From Pirellulales bacterium (GTDB lineage Bacteria; Planctomycetota; Planctomycetia; Pirellulales; UBA1268): a DNA stretch of 64,000 bases. Of the stretch, positions 29,797 to 61,849 are shown in pieces; position 1 is the first letter of the stretch; every line of letters begins with the position of its first letter. The stretch lies in assembly GCA_016776925.1 (NCBI GenBank), contig JADHSL010000001.1, forward strand, positions 28,311-92,310. Direction: 5' to 3'. The translations under genes were made by a program, and so were the position numbers. A model generated the notes under the pieces. The model did no database searches and was not told where the DNA came from. It worked only from the letters and a program-made list of their open reading frames with translations.

Positions 29797-29948
29797 GCAG
29801 AGGCCCCTTCGACGACACGTCCCCATATCCCACAATGATTAAGACTAATTCAAGCAGTCACAGAAGGCAAAGAACCGGCCGTTGAGCATGAAATAGAACC
29901 GGATGGTCAAGAAGGACTTCGGCCAAAAGCATATTCAGCGTTGCCGCT

Positions 29949-29965
29949 ACCTCTTAGATGCTAAA
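29949..29965 (+). repeat. left copy of the 17-nt core ACCTCTTAGATGCTAAA
   Basis: Exact match to 34694-34710. Embedded in the hairpin TACCTCT(29948-54)/AGAGGTA(29971-77). Confidence 0.9.
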
Positions 29966-30451
29966 GACGTAGAGGTACCCGATAGAAAACCTTGAAAGAG
30001 ACAAAACAGCCTTAGTCATGGCGTTTTTAAAATCGTGCCCGTTCTCTCGGTTGGTGTAAACCGATCGTTTCGATCGTTTATCGGGTACGAAAACGGGTAC
30101 AGCTATCCACCTCCTTTGCATCAACCTCCGCTGCCAATCATCCCTGGATCGGGATGCCGAATCTTGGAGTCATCGTCACCCCGGTTGGATCAGACAGGGG
30201 CGGCGTTTTTTTGTATTCGCTTTCTGTCTCATTCTTCCGCCGAACCCCACCTATTAGCAACAAATGTTGGGGTCCTGTGTTCGTATTTTGGACAACGCCA
30301 GGACGTCCTGAATCTGCCACTTTTGCCGTCGTAATATCCCTACGCAACTTGGCCCGTCCGTAGGTTTCGTCATTTCCGTACGGGCGGGCTTTCTCATGCA
30401 CCAAACGAAACGCATTTTCACCCGTAGTAATTACTGGAAGCCACATCTGAA

Positions 30452-30494
30452 CCCGTCAGCAGCACATCCCCGTTACCTGCTGGCGGGTTTTTCT
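30452..30494 (+). terminator. intrinsic terminator-like hairpin plus T-tract
   Basis: CCCGTCAGCAG (30452-62) pairs with CTGCTGGCGGG (30477-87), giving 11 bp with one G-U pair. It is followed by TTTTTCT. Confidence 0.55.
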
Positions 30495-30522
30495 ATGCAC
30501 ACCGCTTCGTGCAGCAGTCTGT

Positions 30523-30551
30523 TAAACTGCACCCATGCAAGACGATCCACC
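30523..30551 (+). repeat. start module copy 1 (TAAACTGCACCCATGCAAGACGATCCACC)
   Basis: One of three near-identical 29-nt blocks. TAAACT lies 6 nt upstream of the ATG. Confidence 0.9.
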
Positions 30552-30630
30552 GACAGACGAGCCTGACGAATTCGATGGTATGTTAGACGATGCACCGTCA
30601 ACAGGGCTGCACATGCCTGAAGAAGACTAG
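30535..30630 (+). CDS. 31-aa acidic peptide MQDDPPTDEPDEFDGMLDDAPSTGLHMPEED
   Basis: Own translation (below the ORF-track cutoff). Shares the N-terminus with two neighbouring ORFs and MLDDAP(S/T)T with the third. Supported by paralogy only. Confidence 0.4.
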   Translation: MQDDPPTDEPDEFDGMLDDAPSTGLHMPEED

Positions 30631-30748
30631 GGCCGCATGGCCAATTCATACGCCCTGCCTTGTTTGCTGTAATGAAACCCTAATCGATTCTTCATTTAGG
30701 CCTAACTTAAGTCTGCAATAAAAATAAAGGAGTTGGAGAACCTCCGCC

Positions 30749-30804
30749 AGAACCACTCTTATCTTTTGATCCCCAATGCGAAGGTAAGAGTGGTTCTTCT
30801 TTAT
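30749..30804 (+). terminator. 13-bp perfect hairpin followed by a T-rich run
   Basis: AGAACCACTCTTA (30749-61) pairs with TAAGAGTGGTTCT (30785-97) across a 23-nt loop, followed by TCTTTAT. Confidence 0.35.
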
Positions 30805-30833
30805 CTAGCCCCGTCTTGTTTGCGGTAGTCTTC

Positions 30834-30862
30834 TAAACTGCACCCATGCAAGACGATCCACC
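30834..30862 (+). repeat. start module copy 2
   Basis: TAAACTGCACCCATGCAAGACGATCCACC, identical to copy 1. Confidence 0.9.
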
Positions 30863-31040
30863 TGAAGACGAATTCGACGGCATTCCGCTGGTTACGTGTA
30901 CATTTTGTAACAAACAGGTAAGCGACAGCGTGAAGCGATGCCCCTACTGCGGAAGGCAATTAATTGCAGAATGGAACTGGTTAATTTGGATGTATGTTGT
31001 GGTTATTGCTGGTGCATCATATTACCTATTTCGGCAATAA
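30846..31040 (+). CDS. 64-aa protein: MQDDPP acidic N-terminus, zinc ribbon, C-terminal membrane span
   Basis: ORF track. CTFC..12..CPYC zinc ribbon, then WNWLIWMYVVVIAGASYYLF. Confidence 0.5.
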   Translation: MQDDPPEDEFDGIPLVTCTFCNKQVSDSVKRCPYCGRQLIAEWNWLIWMYVVVIAGASYYLFRQ

Positions 31041-31051
31041 ATAACCCAGAA

Positions 31052-31080
31052 TAAACTGCACCTATGCAAGACGATCCGCC
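31052..31080 (+). repeat. start module copy 3
   Basis: TAAACTGCACCTATGCAAGACGATCCGCC (2 mismatches). Confidence 0.9.
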
Positions 31081-31156
31081 AGAAGACGACGATGATCTGA
31101 GCGAAATGCTGGACGACGCACCCACCACACCACCAAATCCATACGGGGAGGAATGA
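31064..31156 (+). CDS. 30-aa acidic peptide MQDDPPEDDDDLSEMLDDAPTTPPNPYGEE
   Basis: Own translation. Its stop TGA overlaps the ATG of the next gene (ATGA at 31153-31156). Confidence 0.45.
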   Translation: MQDDPPEDDDDLSEMLDDAPTTPPNPYGEE

Positions 31157-31512
31157 TGAAGTTTTCAGTTGCTGCTGTGGTTCTTCTTGCGTTGGGTGGG
31201 TGTTCACAAAAAGTAACTCTTGAAGACTTGGGTAACCTCAAACACGAGACAAGTCTTAGTGACGTTAAAAGGCTTTTGGGGGAACCCGACCGGGAATTAG
31301 CATTTGGTACAACTCCTGATTATCGTCTTCATCTAGTGGTATATGTAGTTGGTTGGGAGGAGTTTCTACTGATCTTCGATAGAGGATCAGAACTGCCAGA
31401 ATCAGAATTTATTTTGAATGGGAAACAAAGACTCACAGCCAAAAAGAAAAAATTGTTAGCGGATGATTATTTGAACAAGTTTGAAAAACCTATCCCACTG
31501 TCTTGGCAATAA
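31153..31512 (+). CDS. small lipoprotein
   Basis: 119 aa. Signal peptide plus lipobox (VVLLALGGC). The SLSDVKRLLGEPD segment is reminiscent of BamE/SmpA-OmlA-like small lipoproteins. Confidence 0.55.
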   Translation: MMKFSVAAVVLLALGGCSQKVTLEDLGNLKHETSLSDVKRLLGEPDRELAFGTTPDYRLHLVVYVVGWEEFLLIFDRGSELPESEFILNGKQRLTAKKKKLLADDYLNKFEKPIPLSWQ

Positions 31513-31546
31513 CAAAAAGGGCGGTAACGAATAAACGCTGCCGCCC
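31506..31546. repeat. repeat/hairpin copy 1 (GCAATAACAAAAAGGGCGGTAACGAATAAACGCTGCCGCCC)
   Basis: Stem 31519-26 / 31539-46. Near-identical to 32765-32801. Confidence 0.85.
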
Positions 31547-31623
31547 TCACTACTGTTCGTAGCGGGGCTCTCGTCTAATCCCAATAGAACGGATTAAACC
31601 GCTGTAGGCGATTGCTGTAGACT

Positions 31624-34738: not shown

Positions 34739-34812
34739 TAGCGGCGGCCGGACTTGAACCGGCGACCCCAGGCTTATGAAGCCTGTGCTCTAACCAACTG
34801 AGCTACACCGCC
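34739..34812 (-). tRNA. tRNA with CAU anticodon (elongator Met, or Ile2 if lysidine-modified)
   Basis: The reverse complement GGCGGTGTAGCTCAGTTGGTTAGAGCACAGGCTTCATAAGCCTGGGGTCGCCGGTTCAAGTCCGGCCGCCGCTA folds as a cloverleaf. D arm GCTC/GAGC; anticodon stem CAGGC/GCCTG with loop TTCATAA; T arm GCCGG-TTCAAGT-CCGGC. No CCA is encoded. Pair 1-72 is G-U in my fold. Confidence 0.85.
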
Positions 34813-39390: not shown

Positions 39391-39860
39391 GAATCTGAGT
39401 GGGCCTGTAAGCCGGGTTTTGTTCTTTTGGGTCAATTTCCCAAAAGAGGCAATCATTTCTCTACGACGGCAGTTACCTGCAGTCTCAAGCAGCCCACCCG
39501 AAAAGAAACTGAAGCGGATCGCCTCAGGCCGCTGTTTAGAGCGGACTCTCTTCTGTTCGGCCTTGCTCCCGATGGGGTTTACCGAGCCAGACCAGTCACC
39601 CGGCCTGCTGGTGAGCTCTTACCTCACCGTTTCACCCTTACCAGCAGACAGGAGCCTGCTGGCGGTCTAATTTCTGTGGCACTTTCCCTAACCTTACGGC
39701 TGGTGGGGGTTACCCACCATCGCATCCTTCGGAGCCCGGACTTTCCTCTCGCCAGAATGTTTTTGGCACAAAAAATGCAGCTTAATCTCGAAAGATAGAA
39801 ATGCACATTTCACAATCCAAATCCGTATCTGACCAGCGACTGCCCGGCCCACTCAGATTC
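39391..39860 (-). ncRNA. rnpB: RNase P RNA (bacterial type A)
   Basis: The minus strand carries GAGGAAAGTCCGGGCTCC (the universal CR-I motif) and ACAAAACCCGGCTTAC near the 3' end. The termini pair as P1: GAATCTGAGTGGGCC (39860-39846) with GGCCCACTCAGATTC (39405-39391). Confidence 0.9.
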
Positions 39861-43809: not shown

Positions 43810-44653
43810 GTAGTTCCTCTGCATCGAGCCACTGGTCGTTTGTTTGAAACAGCTGCTGGATTGCTGCTTTATGGAGTTTCATTTTTATTTCTCCGACGCC
43901 GAGGGCGCCGTAAAGAATTTTTGTACCATCACGTCGCGCGGTATCGGTTGCCTGAATGCCAGTTATTCCAGCTGGTGGCACTGCATTGAGGTCAATGCAG
44001 ACCGTGGTGGAAATCGCTTGTGAAAGTTGTGCCTCGGTAAGCATCTCGACCCCCGGTCCACCTGCTGAAACAATTAGATCTACGGATCCAATTACCTTCT
44101 CAAGCATTTTGATTGAAGTAGGCTCAAGGCGAGCGAGAGGGAAATTTTTGTTGAGTAGCTTGCAGTGTTGGGATGCGCGCTCAAAGGATCGTGAGGCAAG
44201 ATGGACGTGGGCTCCTTGATTTGCAAGAAGCCGGCTCACTCGTTGTCCAACAGGGCCAGTGCCGCCGAGTACAAGAGCTTGACATGCTTTTGACTTAGTC
44301 GAGGGTTGGAAGGAAATATGTCGTTTTGCTGCAATGACCGTTGCGGCTGCGGTTGTGTTTGCACCTGCTGGATCAATGAGGACACTAACACGAACCGAGT
44401 TGAAAAAGGTGTTTGAAATCTGAGAAGCAATCTCTTCCACCTGAGCAATATTTTTGCCCCCAAGGAAAATGCTCGTTGAGGCAAGATCAGATCCTGCTCG
44501 GGTGAACATTGCTCCATGGATCAGTGAAACAACATTCTTTGGTGAGACGTTGCCGTGTTGCAAAAGAACATCGGCGCCCGCATCAACAGCAACAACCGCA
44601 TCAAATGAACAGGGCTGGGGATCAACATCAAGTTGCAGGAGAATTTTCTTCAT
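43760..44653 (-). CDS. methylene-tetrahydromethanopterin dehydrogenase (MtdA/MtdB family)
   Basis: 297 aa. N-terminal KILLQLDVDPQPCSFD and Rossmann motif LVLGGTGPVGQR as in Mtd proteins. Adjacent to fae. Confidence 0.75.
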   Translation of the reverse strand: MKKILLQLDVDPQPCSFDAVVAVDAGADVLLQHGNVSPKNVVSLIHGAMFTRAGSDLASTSIFLGGKNIAQVEEIASQISNTFFNSVRVSVLIDPAGANTTAAATVIAAKRHISFQPSTKSKACQALVLGGTGPVGQRVSRLLANQGAHVHLASRSFERASQHCKLLNKNFPLARLEPTSIKMLEKVIGSVDLIVSAGGPGVEMLTEAQLSQAISTTVCIDLNAVPPAGITGIQATDTARRDGTKILYGALGVGEIKMKLHKAAIQQLFQTNDQWLDAEELLTIAEKVDVSNEQKSQ

Positions 44654-44685
44654 GGAAGAAAGCTAGCATAGTCATTCGTTTTGTA

Positions 44686-59094: not shown

Positions 59095-59212
59095 GAGCGA
59101 CTGCCGATGAGAGGCCCACCGCACAAAGAGACGACTGCTTATGGCTGCTGCGGTTAAGCCCTGACCAGGTTCGCAGGCCTCCATCGCAGGGGCCCCTCAT
59201 CGGCCTCCGCTC
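59095..59212 (-). ncRNA. ffs: signal recognition particle RNA (4.5S type)
   Basis: The minus strand carries GAACCTGGTCAGGGC....GCAGCAGCCATAAG (domain IV motifs GGUCAGG / AGCAGCC). The termini pair (GCCGATGAGGGGCCC with GGGCCTCTCATCGGC). It sits in the classic position upstream of dnaX. The apical loop is atypical (CTTAAC). Confidence 0.75.
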
Positions 59213-59266
59213 TCACTAAGTTTTACGTCCTTCTCGCGGTTCGGTAAAGGCTGCTACATTCCTGAC

Positions 59267-61849
59267 ATGGCTTCCCCCATGATGCAACAATTTGAGGCAG
59301 CGAAGGCCCGTTGTCCGGGCGCTCTGGTACTGTTCCGGATGGGGGACTTTTATGAACTTTTCGGAGACGATGCAAAACGAGCAGCGGAACTACTTGACCT
59401 CACTCTGACCAGTAGAGACAAGGGACCAAATGCAACCCCGATGGCCGGCTTTCCACACCATCAGCTAGATCCACAACTCGTGAAACTTGTTGCGGCTGGG
59501 GAACACGTCGCAATTTGTGAACAAATAGATGACCCAAAAACGACGAAAGGTCTTCTGCGGCGTGAGGTGACGCGGATTGTTACTCCTGGGATCGCTTCAG
59601 ATGAATCGTTGCTTCAGCCTGATAGAGCAAACCATCTTGTAGCGATTGCGCCGGAGGCTCTTCTGTCACAAGAGAATTCTGGCAAAGAATTGTCTGAGCG
59701 TGACGCGACTATTGGAATTGCATGGATCGATGTTTCGGTTGGTCGCTTTCAAGCAGCAGTTCGAAATCTTGAAGAATTAAAAGATCATCTGTTGAGGCTT
59801 GATGCATCTGAGATACTTTGTAGTGAACGGGATCGGTCGTTTATAGAAAAAATCCTTGCTGAATCTGGAATCAAAACAGTATTGACTGTACGGCCTGAAT
59901 GGTGGTTTGAGGATAAGCAGGCTGAAGCAAAGGTGACCTCGGCAATTGGTAGCCTTCGTTTCGATGGGCTGGGATTTAATCTACCGGAAGAACAGTTGGC
60001 ACTCACTGCGGCTGGAGGAATCCTTGCATATCTCGATGAAAATGAACCGGCAGCAATCGGTCGTATTAAGACTCTTGCAGCCTGGAGGTCGGGATCACGG
60101 ATGGAAATTGATGAAGCAACTCGGCGGAGTTTGGAACTTATACGAGGATCTTCGCAGTCTGGACATCGTCGAGATGGTTCGCTGGCTGGTGTCTTTGGAA
60201 AAACGCGTTCGGCTATGGGGAGCCGGCTTCTGGTCGATTGGCTGAGTGCTCCGTTGGTTGAGAAAACTGCAATTGATGAACGAATAGACGCAGTCTCCGT
60301 TCTTGTGGATCACCCCGGTATTGCTAGTCAACTGACAGCAACACTTCAGGGCGTCGGTGATATTGAGCGATTGATAGGACGTGTAATGTCAGGTCGAGCA
60401 GGACCGCGAGACATTGAGCGAATCGGTCACGTCACAAAGATTCTACCGGAATTAATCACATTGCTTGGTAAGGCGGGTGCACTTGTGGCAACAGATGCCC
60501 CCAACGGGTCTACGCTACTGGCTAATTTCGGTGATCATCTTGATCCGTGTTTCGATCTTTCAAAGAAAATTATGGCAACGCTTCGTGATGGCTGTCCGAC
60601 GTTTGCTCGTGATGGTGGTTTCATCCGGCCAGGATTTGATAGTCGCTACGATGAGTTCGTCGAACTCGCGACAGGTGGAAAGGCGTGGATTGCGAAATAT
60701 CAAGCCTCAGAGAGTGAGCGGACGGGCATTCCAAGACTGAAGGTCGGGTTTAACCGTGTATTTGGATTCTTCCTGGAAGTTGGTCGAGGATATTCAGACA
60801 AAGTACCTTCCGAATATGTTCGTAAGCAGACCGTGAAAAATGCTGAACGATATACGACACCAGAACTTGATGAACGGCAGCGACAAGTTCTCGGTGCCGA
60901 GGAAGAAGGTGTTCGTCGTGAACTTGAACTTTTTGAGGACTTGCGAAATTTTGTAGCACATCATCGGGAGCGTCTGGATAATGTCGCGGAGCAGGTAGCA
61001 ACAGTTGATGTACTTTTGACCTTTGCGGATGTGGCCAGGTCGCGTCGATGGGTTCGGGCTGACATTTCTAATGACTCGGTACTTGCTATCGATCAGGGGC
61101 GACATCCAGTACTTGAGCAATTGTTGCCTGCAGGCACGTTGGTGCCGAATGATCTGGCGCTTGTTGGGAGACGTGCGGAGGGTGCTGGTGAGAATTCTCT
61201 TCCTTCGATCTTGTTAGTTACCGGACCAAATATGGGTGGGAAAAGCACGTTCATCAGGCAGGCCGCGTTACTCGCAGTCCTGGCTCAGGCCGGCTCATTT
61301 GTGCCGGCAAAGGCAGCGAGGATTGGAATAGTTGACAGATTATTCGCCCGAATTGGGGCTGGTGATGATCTTGCCAGCGGCGCGAGTACGTTTCTTGTTG
61401 AAATGTCACAGACAGCACGTATTCTCAACAGGGCCACTGAGAAAAGCCTGGTGATTCTGGATGAGGTTGGCCGGGGTACAAGCACATTCGACGGTCTCGC
61501 TTTGGCTCAGTCTGTCGTTGAGTACCTCTATAAAAAGCTGTATTGCAGGACTTTATTTGCAACGCATTATCTTCAGCTTGCAGCGCTCGAGAAATACTCA
61601 GGCGTCGCGAATGCCAAGGTTCTTGTCGAACAGCATGAAGGACAACTGATTTTTCTTCATCAGGTTACTTCAGGTGCGGCAGATAAAAGTTGGGGAGTGC
61701 ATGTCGCCAGGCTTGCTGGTGTTCCCGATGCTGTTATTAATAGGGCCAGGGATCTGTTACTCGCATACGAAGCTGGTGGAACACAGAAGTCTCCAAAAGC
61801 AAAACGTTCCCACGGTTCAAGCGAAGGACAGTCACTTTTATTTGACTAA
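59267..61849 (+). CDS. mutS: DNA mismatch repair protein MutS
   Basis: 860 aa. N-terminal MMQQF...FYELF mismatch-binding motif, Walker A GPNMGGKST, DEVGRGTSTFDG. Confidence 0.95.
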   Translation: MASPMMQQFEAAKARCPGALVLFRMGDFYELFGDDAKRAAELLDLTLTSRDKGPNATPMAGFPHHQLDPQLVKLVAAGEHVAICEQIDDPKTTKGLLRREVTRIVTPGIASDESLLQPDRANHLVAIAPEALLSQENSGKELSERDATIGIAWIDVSVGRFQAAVRNLEELKDHLLRLDASEILCSERDRSFIEKILAESGIKTVLTVRPEWWFEDKQAEAKVTSAIGSLRFDGLGFNLPEEQLALTAAGGILAYLDENEPAAIGRIKTLAAWRSGSRMEIDEATRRSLELIRGSSQSGHRRDGSLAGVFGKTRSAMGSRLLVDWLSAPLVEKTAIDERIDAVSVLVDHPGIASQLTATLQGVGDIERLIGRVMSGRAGPRDIERIGHVTKILPELITLLGKAGALVATDAPNGSTLLANFGDHLDPCFDLSKKIMATLRDGCPTFARDGGFIRPGFDSRYDEFVELATGGKAWIAKYQASESERTGIPRLKVGFNRVFGFFLEVGRGYSDKVPSEYVRKQTVKNAERYTTPELDERQRQVLGAEEEGVRRELELFEDLRNFVAHHRERLDNVAEQVATVDVLLTFADVARSRRWVRADISNDSVLAIDQGRHPVLEQLLPAGTLVPNDLALVGRRAEGAGENSLPSILLVTGPNMGGKSTFIRQAALLAVLAQAGSFVPAKAARIGIVDRLFARIGAGDDLASGASTFLVEMSQTARILNRATEKSLVILDEVGRGTSTFDGLALAQSVVEYLYKKLYCRTLFATHYLQLAALEKYSGVANAKVLVEQHEGQLIFLHQVTSGAADKSWGVHVARLAGVPDAVINRARDLLLAYEAGGTQKSPKAKRSHGSSEGQSLLFD

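Follow-up and report, generated by a model that had tools for sequence, protein, structure and literature searches.

A repeated module joins an extended −10-like element to the start of tandem small genes in a marine Pirellulales bacterium

Introduction

In leaderless genes the −10 element can abut the start codon, as in phage lambda cI transcribed from PRM and in many genes of Mycobacterium, Streptomyces and Deinococcus; work by Shell et al. in 2015 is reportedly pointed to for genes of this kind. Here we analyse a comparable arrangement in a 64,000-nucleotide (nt) stretch of DNA from a Pirellulales bacterium (assembly GCA_016776925.1, contig JADHSL010000001.1, positions 28,311 to 92,310 of the forward strand). 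This whole stretch is referred to as the window, and all positions given below are window positions. A 29-nt module, TAAACTGCACCYATGCAAGACGATCCRCC, occurs in it three times, and each copy runs from a −10-like hexamer, TAAACT, into the ATG of a separate small open reading frame (ORF) that begins with the residues MQDDPP. The likeness to leaderless genes lies in a TAnnnT hexamer that ends 6-7 nt before the ATG, in the lack of a Shine-Dalgarno (SD) sequence, and in a putative promoter hemmed in by a terminator on its 5′ side and by the start codon on the other. The difference is that the element found here is a multi-copy cassette that heads unrelated proteins and in which not even the synonymous positions of the first 17 coding bases vary.

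Extended −10 promoters, which carry a TGn ahead of the hexamer and do without a −35 element, are represented by the galP1 type of E. coli and by the −16 region (TRTGn) of Gram-positive bacteria. The module resembles them in that a TG, seen at −15/−14 in about two thirds of copies, is followed by one variable base and then the hexamer, with no recognisable −35 element. It differs in reading TAAACT or TAGACT followed by a conserved GCA, and within the window the TG is found in copy 1 only. Families in which a conserved 5′ expression block is set on variable bodies include the Borrelia upstream homology boxes and the Mycoplasma vlp genes. There too, one promoter-plus-start block sits on diverse tandem coding bodies, but the N-terminus encoded here is an acidic hexapeptide and not a lipoprotein signal peptide, and no evidence of phase or antigenic variation was seen for the cassette. 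Finally, overlapping stop and start codons such as ATGA and TGATG pairs can couple neighbouring genes by termination-reinitiation (PMC6728339). This resembles the ATGATGA overlap between the third ORF (ORF3) and the lipoprotein gene behind it, and also the MQDDPP genes of relatives that lie 2-11 nt past a stop codon (TAA-CCY-ATG). It nevertheless applies to part of the family only, and in the window to the gene after ORF3, not to the module copies.

Our favoured reading, to which we give a probability of roughly 0.6, is that each copy heads one of three small genes in tandem and joins a sigma-70-type extended −10 promoter to an MQDDPP start, and that the resulting mRNAs are leaderless. The mechanism would be of a known kind. 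What is new is a cassette common to a heterogeneous family outside Pfam and NCBIfam, together with synonymous constraint at its coding start.

Three module copies and the genes that they head

A first-pass annotation of this DNA had proposed three copies of the module, each ATG opening a separate small ORF, with TAAACT 6 nt before the ATG and a spacer lacking an SD sequence. A pattern search of the window, together with its list of ORFs, confirmed each of these points. The matches lie at 30523-30551, 30834-30862 and 31052-31080 on the + strand; the distance from the end of TAAACT to the ATG is 6 nt in 3/3 copies, and no SD sequence is present in their spacers, GCACCC and GCACCT. There is no fourth match in the window at up to 3 mismatches, and 100 shuffles produced 0 matches, the chance expectation being 0.

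ORF1 (30535-30630, +) encodes a 31-amino-acid (aa) acidic peptide, MQDDPPTDEPDEFDGMLDDAPSTGLHMPEED, with family matches down to E 1e-12. The 64-aa product of ORF2 (30846-31040, +) opens with MQDDPP and has a transmembrane (TM) helix at its C-terminus; it also contains a zinc ribbon, matched by Zn_Ribbon_1 of Pfam at E 1.6e-6 and 28.2 bits (cut-off 25). ORF3 (31064-31156, +) again encodes an acidic peptide, of 30 aa, and its last codons, for YGEE, contain the SD sequence of the next gene. ORF1 and ORF3 are paralogous from end to end, and ORF2 shares about 12 N-terminal residues only.

The hexamer of copy 1 forms part of an extended −10-like sequence, TGtTAAACT (P1; 30520-30528, hexamer 30523-30528, +), located by its motif and by the conservation profile of the family. 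For copy 2, pattern search, repeat search and contig comparison place an upstream block and P2 at 30808-30839 (+), with the hexamer TAAACT at 30834-30839. The window has T at position 30832 (TTc), where 12 related metagenome contigs have G (TGc), and this T takes away the extended −10 TG ahead of ORF2. P3, a TAAACT without TG found by the pattern search (31052-31057, +), lies 23 nt past the ORF2 stop codon, and its orthologues read TAGACT (L016 3114, L046 8002). All three copies are present, in the same layout, in 13/13 near-identical metagenome contigs, in which single variants alter the first T of the hexamer to give AAAACT (L002, copy 1) or CAAACT (L010, copy 3).

Shared sequence upstream of copies 1 and 2, a further claim of the first-pass annotation, is also real: the two are 86% identical across 51 nt and have AGTCTnnTAAACT in common. 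The claim of an orphan repeat left by duplication and decay stood in part. The block at 30652-30671 (+) recurs at 17/20 identity to 30808-30827, with no −10/ATG module after it, and on a rough estimate about 0.05 such matches would be expected by chance in the 1.9-kb stretch, so that the match is real but weak. The block is possibly a remnant of the T-run or upstream part of a unit, and decay is plausible. As a separate observation, three evenly spaced palindromes of 4 base pairs (bp) each, TGCA-N4-TGCA-N4-GATC, occupy −7..+13 of the module (30528-30547, and likewise in the other two copies), and all three are 98-100% conserved among relatives.

A family confined to a narrow marine clade

The three ORFs are real genes, and their family is restricted to a narrow clade of marine Pirellulales and lies outside Pfam and NCBIfam. 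A profile built from the three ORFs found 64 proteins, every one of them from a marine metagenome or a Pirellulales bin. At E<=1e-3, a set of 1.84 billion proteins contained 39 cluster representatives of the family. Among 185,579 species genomes it was found at 5 loci, in 4 metagenome-assembled genomes of Planctomycetota/Pirellulales, and 43 marine metagenome contigs carry it. When ten family proteins were scanned against Pfam and NCBIfam, nothing was found but Zn_Ribbon_1 in ORF2. The commonest form is about 30 aa long and reads MQDDPPEDxxDEFDGMLDDAP(T/S)T and then either PPNxYGEE or GPHMPEE. The residues of its DDAP motif are invariant, yet their codons vary (second Asp GAC 17, GAT 23; Pro in four codons), which argues for purifying selection on the peptide. 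By our reading the acidic peptides would be cytoplasmic short-motif proteins. ORF2 has orthologues in L016 and L046, where the gene order, ORF2 followed by an acidic peptide and then a secreted or lipoprotein gene, is also kept. This defines a family of ~30-aa acidic peptides and small membrane proteins of a kind that gene callers often miss or join to the genes beside them.

The upstream half behaves like a −10 element in relatives

Related loci were gathered with a pattern built from coding sequence alone, which left upstream sequence without influence on the choice, and 55 unique MQDDP starts were obtained. The search of relatives that the first-pass annotation had suggested was productive, as 33 unique units carry the upstream motif, (GC)AGTCTGnTA[A/G/C]ACTGCAyCy, directly 5′ of the ATG and thus with the hexamer 6 nt before it. 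T at −7 is conserved in 100%, A at −11 in 95%, C at −8 in 93%, A at −9 in 91%, T at −12 in 86%, G at −14 in 68% and T at −15 in 64%. The variable upstream positions are −10 (A/G/C) and −13, and −3, −1 and +18 vary as well. Such a profile fits the TGnTAnnnT pattern of an extended −10 element, and it is not a matter of codon periodicity, because −7 and −4 are fixed.

The ATG stands exactly 6 nt past the hexamer, without insertions or deletions, in 33/36 unique motif copies, a spacing that would place the A of the ATG at the canonical +1; most motif copies have a pyrimidine at −1. In the other three (L022, L031 and L050), whose upstream context is the same as in MQDDPP units, the motif is followed by a leader of about 36 nt with AGGAGGG and then by the ATG of an unrelated gene for 67-72 aa. 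The motif thus appears to work apart from the ATG, and therefore to be promoter-like rather than a translation signal.

An ORF ending within 11 nt upstream was seen for 4/33 motif-bearing units, 1 of these being convincing, and another ORF ends 2-11 nt ahead of 10-12 of the 17 motif-less units. About 12 units sit 2-11 nt, often 3, past the stop codon of another ORF (for example GTT TAA CCC ATG) and lack the motif, and in 5 units AAAACTGCA lies inside a longer ORF, with TAA changed to AAA and the peptide fused to a 2-TM protein. The 29 nt do not, then, form one unit as first supposed, since the coding half is kept without the promoter half in both coupled and fused contexts. The description of the module as portable fits well, the cassette heading at least 8 unrelated ORF bodies.

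A coding start fixed at the nucleotide level

The coding half, ATGCAAGACGATCCACC (the first 17 coding bases, for MQDDPP), is present in all 55 unique MQDDP starts and heads many unrelated proteins of 29-355 aa in the narrow marine Pirellulales clade. The bodies behind MQDDPP comprise acidic peptides, zinc-ribbon/TM proteins, 2-TM proteins, tail-anchored proteins and acidic proteins of 138-355 aa. In L026 5779-6636 (−), L056 ~215 (−), P0076, L016 4418-4732 (+) and P0014, the acidic peptide is fused with, or read through into, its neighbour, which is a sirtuin-like protein, the lipoprotein (in L056), an HTH_17 protein or a 2-TM protein. In the 2-TM fusions the TAA of TAAACT is replaced by AAA, and in some the ATG is replaced by ATT, ATA or ACG.

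Codons 2-5 (30538-30549, and relatives) are nearly fixed, at CAA 53/55, GAC 53/55, GAT 55/55 and CCA 49/55, and the third base of codon 6 is free. The two Asp codons are split 148/161 elsewhere in the same ORFs and 446/310 in the long ORFs of the window. A promoter alone leaves this constraint unexplained, because the coupled units are equally constrained; the near-fixed codons 2-5 thus mark a sequence constraint at the coding start beyond what the promoter accounts for. Two points are offered as leads and not as results: +1..+17 encodes D-P-P-E/Q and corresponds roughly to the stretch held by the ribosome at initiation, and together with the upstream TGCA it forms TGCA-N4-TGCA-N4-GATC.

Proposed transcription of the locus

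The promoters proposed here would have the form TGnTA[A/G]ACT, lack a −35 element and usually lie just past an intrinsic-terminator-like hairpin, with a transcription start that coincides with the A of the ATG or misses it by one or two bases. That the hexamer is a −10 element, as the first-pass annotation held, agrees with its behaviour in relatives; the leaderless part of that claim, meaning the actual transcription start and translation from a 5′-terminal AUG, is one that we infer from the sequence.

ORF1 would be expressed as a monocistronic leaderless mRNA from P1, after a hairpin that we call T3 (30449-30490, +, with a U-run to 30494; −24.5 kcal/mol, z −4.9; also found by the terminator scan), whose end lies about 40 nt 5′ of the ORF1 ATG. 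This mRNA would end at a hairpin of 17-18 bp with a U-rich tail (30749-30809, stem 30749-30797, +; −25.7 kcal/mol, z −6.2), which is also detected as an inverted repeat and is the probable terminator of the ORF1 transcript, ahead of P2. A second leaderless transcript would start at P2 for ORF2 and run on through ORF3. ORF3 would keep P3 as a weaker internal promoter copy; since copy 3 lies 23 nt behind ORF2 and has no TG, it may be mainly co-transcribed.

The lipoprotein gene behind ORF3 (31153-31512, +; 118/119 aa, lipobox LGGC) would be translated by stop-start coupling and from its own SD sequence, GGAGG at 31147-31151 (+), which lies inside the YGEE codons of ORF3. The ORF3 stop codon TGA (31154-31156) overlaps ATG 31153 and ATG 31156 as ATGATGA, and on this overlap we take the lipoprotein gene to be translationally coupled to ORF3. 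In L056 the acidic peptide and the lipoprotein are fused. Pfam and NCBIfam scans gave no family match for the lipoprotein gene. After it, a hairpin at 31518-31547 (+; −18.4 kcal/mol, z −3.4), without a clear U-run, marks the end of the transcription unit by its predicted fold.

T3 belongs to a hairpin family with 20 unique copies (in the window and in L014-L061), which have a GC-rich 13-bp stem, are confined to clusters of these small genes and stand next to MQDDPP genes. Compensatory change supports the stem: at one pair, 14 copies have C-G, 4 have A-U and 1 has U-A. Many motif-bearing units lie 30-46 nt past a GC-rich 13-bp hairpin with a U-run (−24 to −27 kcal/mol), and T3 is found again in L040, ahead of another MQDDPP gene. 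T3 and T2 are the only members of the hairpin family in the 64-kb window, and T2 (30351-30395, +; −26.8 kcal/mol, z −4.6) has a UUUCU tail and no promoter module after it. Some copies are found 5-10 nt before the SD sequence and ATG of other genes. Hairpins of the T2/T3 type may be terminators, attenuators or small RNAs. The family shows two conserved 5′ flanks, one with TAATAT 14 nt before the stem (30332-30337).

Three structural ideas about this region were tried and rejected. Antiterminator pairing of the 5′ flank (CCTACG/CGTAGG) shows no covariation in the CAGCAGG-type hairpins. The T2-T3 interval as a small RNA shows no excess conservation, being 91% identical between the window and L040 where the lipoprotein gene is 88.6% identical. 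A small stem around the hexamer, GCAGT/ACTGC, is broken without compensation by the variants in L037, L051 and L027.

The same layout at other genes

The pattern TGNTANNNT-N6-ATG occurs 3 times in the window, each time at the first ATG of an ORF, these being ORF1, mutS and an mtdA-like gene. At mutS, TGcTAnnnT-N6-ATG lies at 59252-59269 (+) with the ATG at 59267, and MutS domain I begins at residue 4; at the mtdA-like (Mpt_N) gene it lies at 44651-44668 (−), with the start, the first ATG, at 44653. mutS and the mtdA-like gene are put forward as candidate leaderless housekeeping genes. Two further genes begin with the looser TANNNT-N6-ATG, namely rsgA (40540) and a gene for an SNase lipoprotein (33281, −). 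In an offset scan of 132 non-redundant gene starts (window and loci), TAnnnT peaks at −12 with 9 occurrences against a mean of 1.9 per offset; 6 are found there when the MQDDPP family is excluded. A second TAnnnT excess was seen in the same starts at −21/−20, with 8 and 6 occurrences against the same mean. The cassette and the layout at mutS and the mtdA-like gene provide a concrete, testable −10 motif, and predict that leaderless mRNAs are common in marine Pirellulales.

The use of the spacer as an argument for leaderless mRNAs proved less telling. The spacers do lack an SD sequence, but this is weak evidence, because an SD-like sequence is found in only 11/41 long genes of the window. Among the genes considered here, the lipoprotein gene, which is not a member of the family, has a strong SD sequence, and MQDDPP starts never do. 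A comparative-genomics paper counts Planctomycetes among the SD-poor phyla and explains their upstream sequence biases by leaderless mRNA and/or ribosomal protein S1 (PMC5397173). It was the only paper found when the literature was searched for planctomycete transcription starts and leaderless mRNAs, and neither a published map of such starts nor a promoter motif was found for the phylum. With the same layout at mutS and the mtdA-like gene, this organism, itself poor in SD sequences, probably uses leaderless starts widely, and the mechanism is probably an ordinary one there.

Discussion

A number of observations weigh against the reading of the module as an extended −10 promoter with a leaderless start. 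TAAACT agrees with TATAAT at only 4/6 positions, and its first T varies within populations to A, C or G. The TG at −15/−14 is confined to copy 1 in the window and is present in about two thirds of the family copies. For a −35 element, which would be a TTGACA-like hexamer lying 16-18 nt ahead of the −10, a consensus promoter scan gave 0 sites, and no conserved hexamer was found in the hairpin/T-run region, where it would fall. The GCA at −6..−4 is 89-98% conserved, which a generic promoter does not require, and ACTGCA persists in the fused ORFs (class D). No terminator separates ORF2 from copy 3, which lies inside a probable operon. The hairpins seem to be transcribed through at times and are not always a full stop, because copies directly precede SD-led genes. 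Because the units share a common descent, their conservation counts are not independent. At its predicted 5′ end the ORF1 mRNA is as structured as random windows; the 5′ ends of the ORF2 and ORF3 mRNAs are fairly open (top 6-7% of random windows), which is weak evidence. When Logan/ENA contigs, which are metagenomic, were checked as transcript assemblies, 0 began at an ATG.

Some of these points would also be expected if the upstream bases were simply carried along with the genes. On that account, which we consider unlikely, the 12 upstream bases are alike through recent duplication and gene conversion, transcription arrives from further upstream through the hairpins, and ribosomes initiate internally at the ATGs without an SD sequence, as they would at the majority of the organism's genes. 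The scarcity of SD-like sequence in the long window genes, the ACTGCA retained internally in copy 3 and in class D, and the hairpins that are read through on the way to other genes all agree with it, as does the lack of extra conservation in the T2-T3-promoter region (91% identity, against 88.6% in neighbouring coding DNA). However, variation falls at specific positions, with −13, −10, −3, −1 and +18 varying and −11, −7 and −4 fixed, as in a −10 element; there has thus been enough divergence for selection to show. In addition, most units with another ORF ending 2-11 nt ahead of them lack the motif, and the motif is also found ahead of an unrelated, leadered gene.

We think it quite unlikely that −18..+17 is mainly the binding site of a common DNA- or RNA-binding protein, or of a small RNA, that controls all MQDDPP genes, with the −10 look being secondary. 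Such a site would agree with the near fixation of synonymous sites in codons 2-5 in every context, with the palindromes at −7..+13 and with the conserved GCA. No candidate regulator or complementary RNA was found on either strand of the window, however, and the upstream half is dispensable in the coupled units. Regulation of this kind would in any case be compatible with, and not opposed to, the promoter reading.

The constraint on the coding half allows a more speculative and rather improbable proposal, namely that the MQDDPP head is a dedicated cassette for SD-independent, 70S-type initiation, at a 5′-terminal AUG or by re-initiation shortly after a stop codon. Its first 17 nt would be selected at the nucleotide level, with D-P-P-E/Q being of the EF-P-dependent type, and the small proteins would form a post-transcriptional regulon tuned by the state of the ribosome or EF-P.

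It is very improbable that the 5′ block serves as a homology anchor for swapping ORF bodies behind one expression site, in the manner of variable surface-protein families. At least 8 unrelated bodies do share one head, mosaic and fused variants occur, and the copies are tandem direct repeats. Against this, no recombinase or integrase is encoded within +/-10 kb, attC-like cores are not conserved (−13 is variable, so that GTTRRRY is not kept), the three-copy layout is identical in the 13/13 population contigs, and the block is conserved between genomes and not merely within one. Tandem precursors of the RiPP type, with a conserved leader and variable cores, are hardly credible: the tandem short ORFs do vary more beyond their conserved N-terminus, but the common part is just 6-8 residues, the C-terminal MLDDAPTTPP is itself conserved, the acidic peptides are free of Cys, the neighbourhood encodes no modifying enzyme, protease or transporter, and the MQDDPP start also heads proteins of 180-355 aa.

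Other candidates were rejected outright. For a sigma-54 promoter, GG-N10-GC with transcription starting about 12 nt further on, the GC in CTGCA has no GG 12 nt ahead of it, and the mRNA would begin within the ORF. For an integron cassette with attC (RYYYAAC...GTTRRRY), GTTAAAC is found in copy 1 only, with no integrase within +/-10 kb. For a REP- or MITE-type repeat, the module occurs in this cluster only within the 64 kb, and the hairpin at T2 and T3 only.

Other features of the window

The region gave no match to Rfam at the gathering score and chance-level matches only at E<=5. Elsewhere in the window are an RNase P RNA of class A (39392-39855, −), a tRNA (34739-34812, −) and a small SRP RNA (59103-59201, −), whose upstream regions were uninformative as a guide to the −10 element of the host. 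Genes in the neighbourhood of the family encode sulfatases and DUF1080-type hydrolases and include H4MPT-linked genes. Gene calls in several metagenome contigs include a 102-aa ORF on the opposite strand (30138-30446, −), which is probably spurious, because it belongs to no family and overlaps hairpin elements. It falls within an unusually long non-coding stretch of about 740 nt (29797-30534) between a divergent gene for a 726-aa fn3 protein and ORF1. On its + strand this stretch has three hairpin/T-run elements, of which the first lies near 30174-30213, and it has no gene on that strand for them to terminate.

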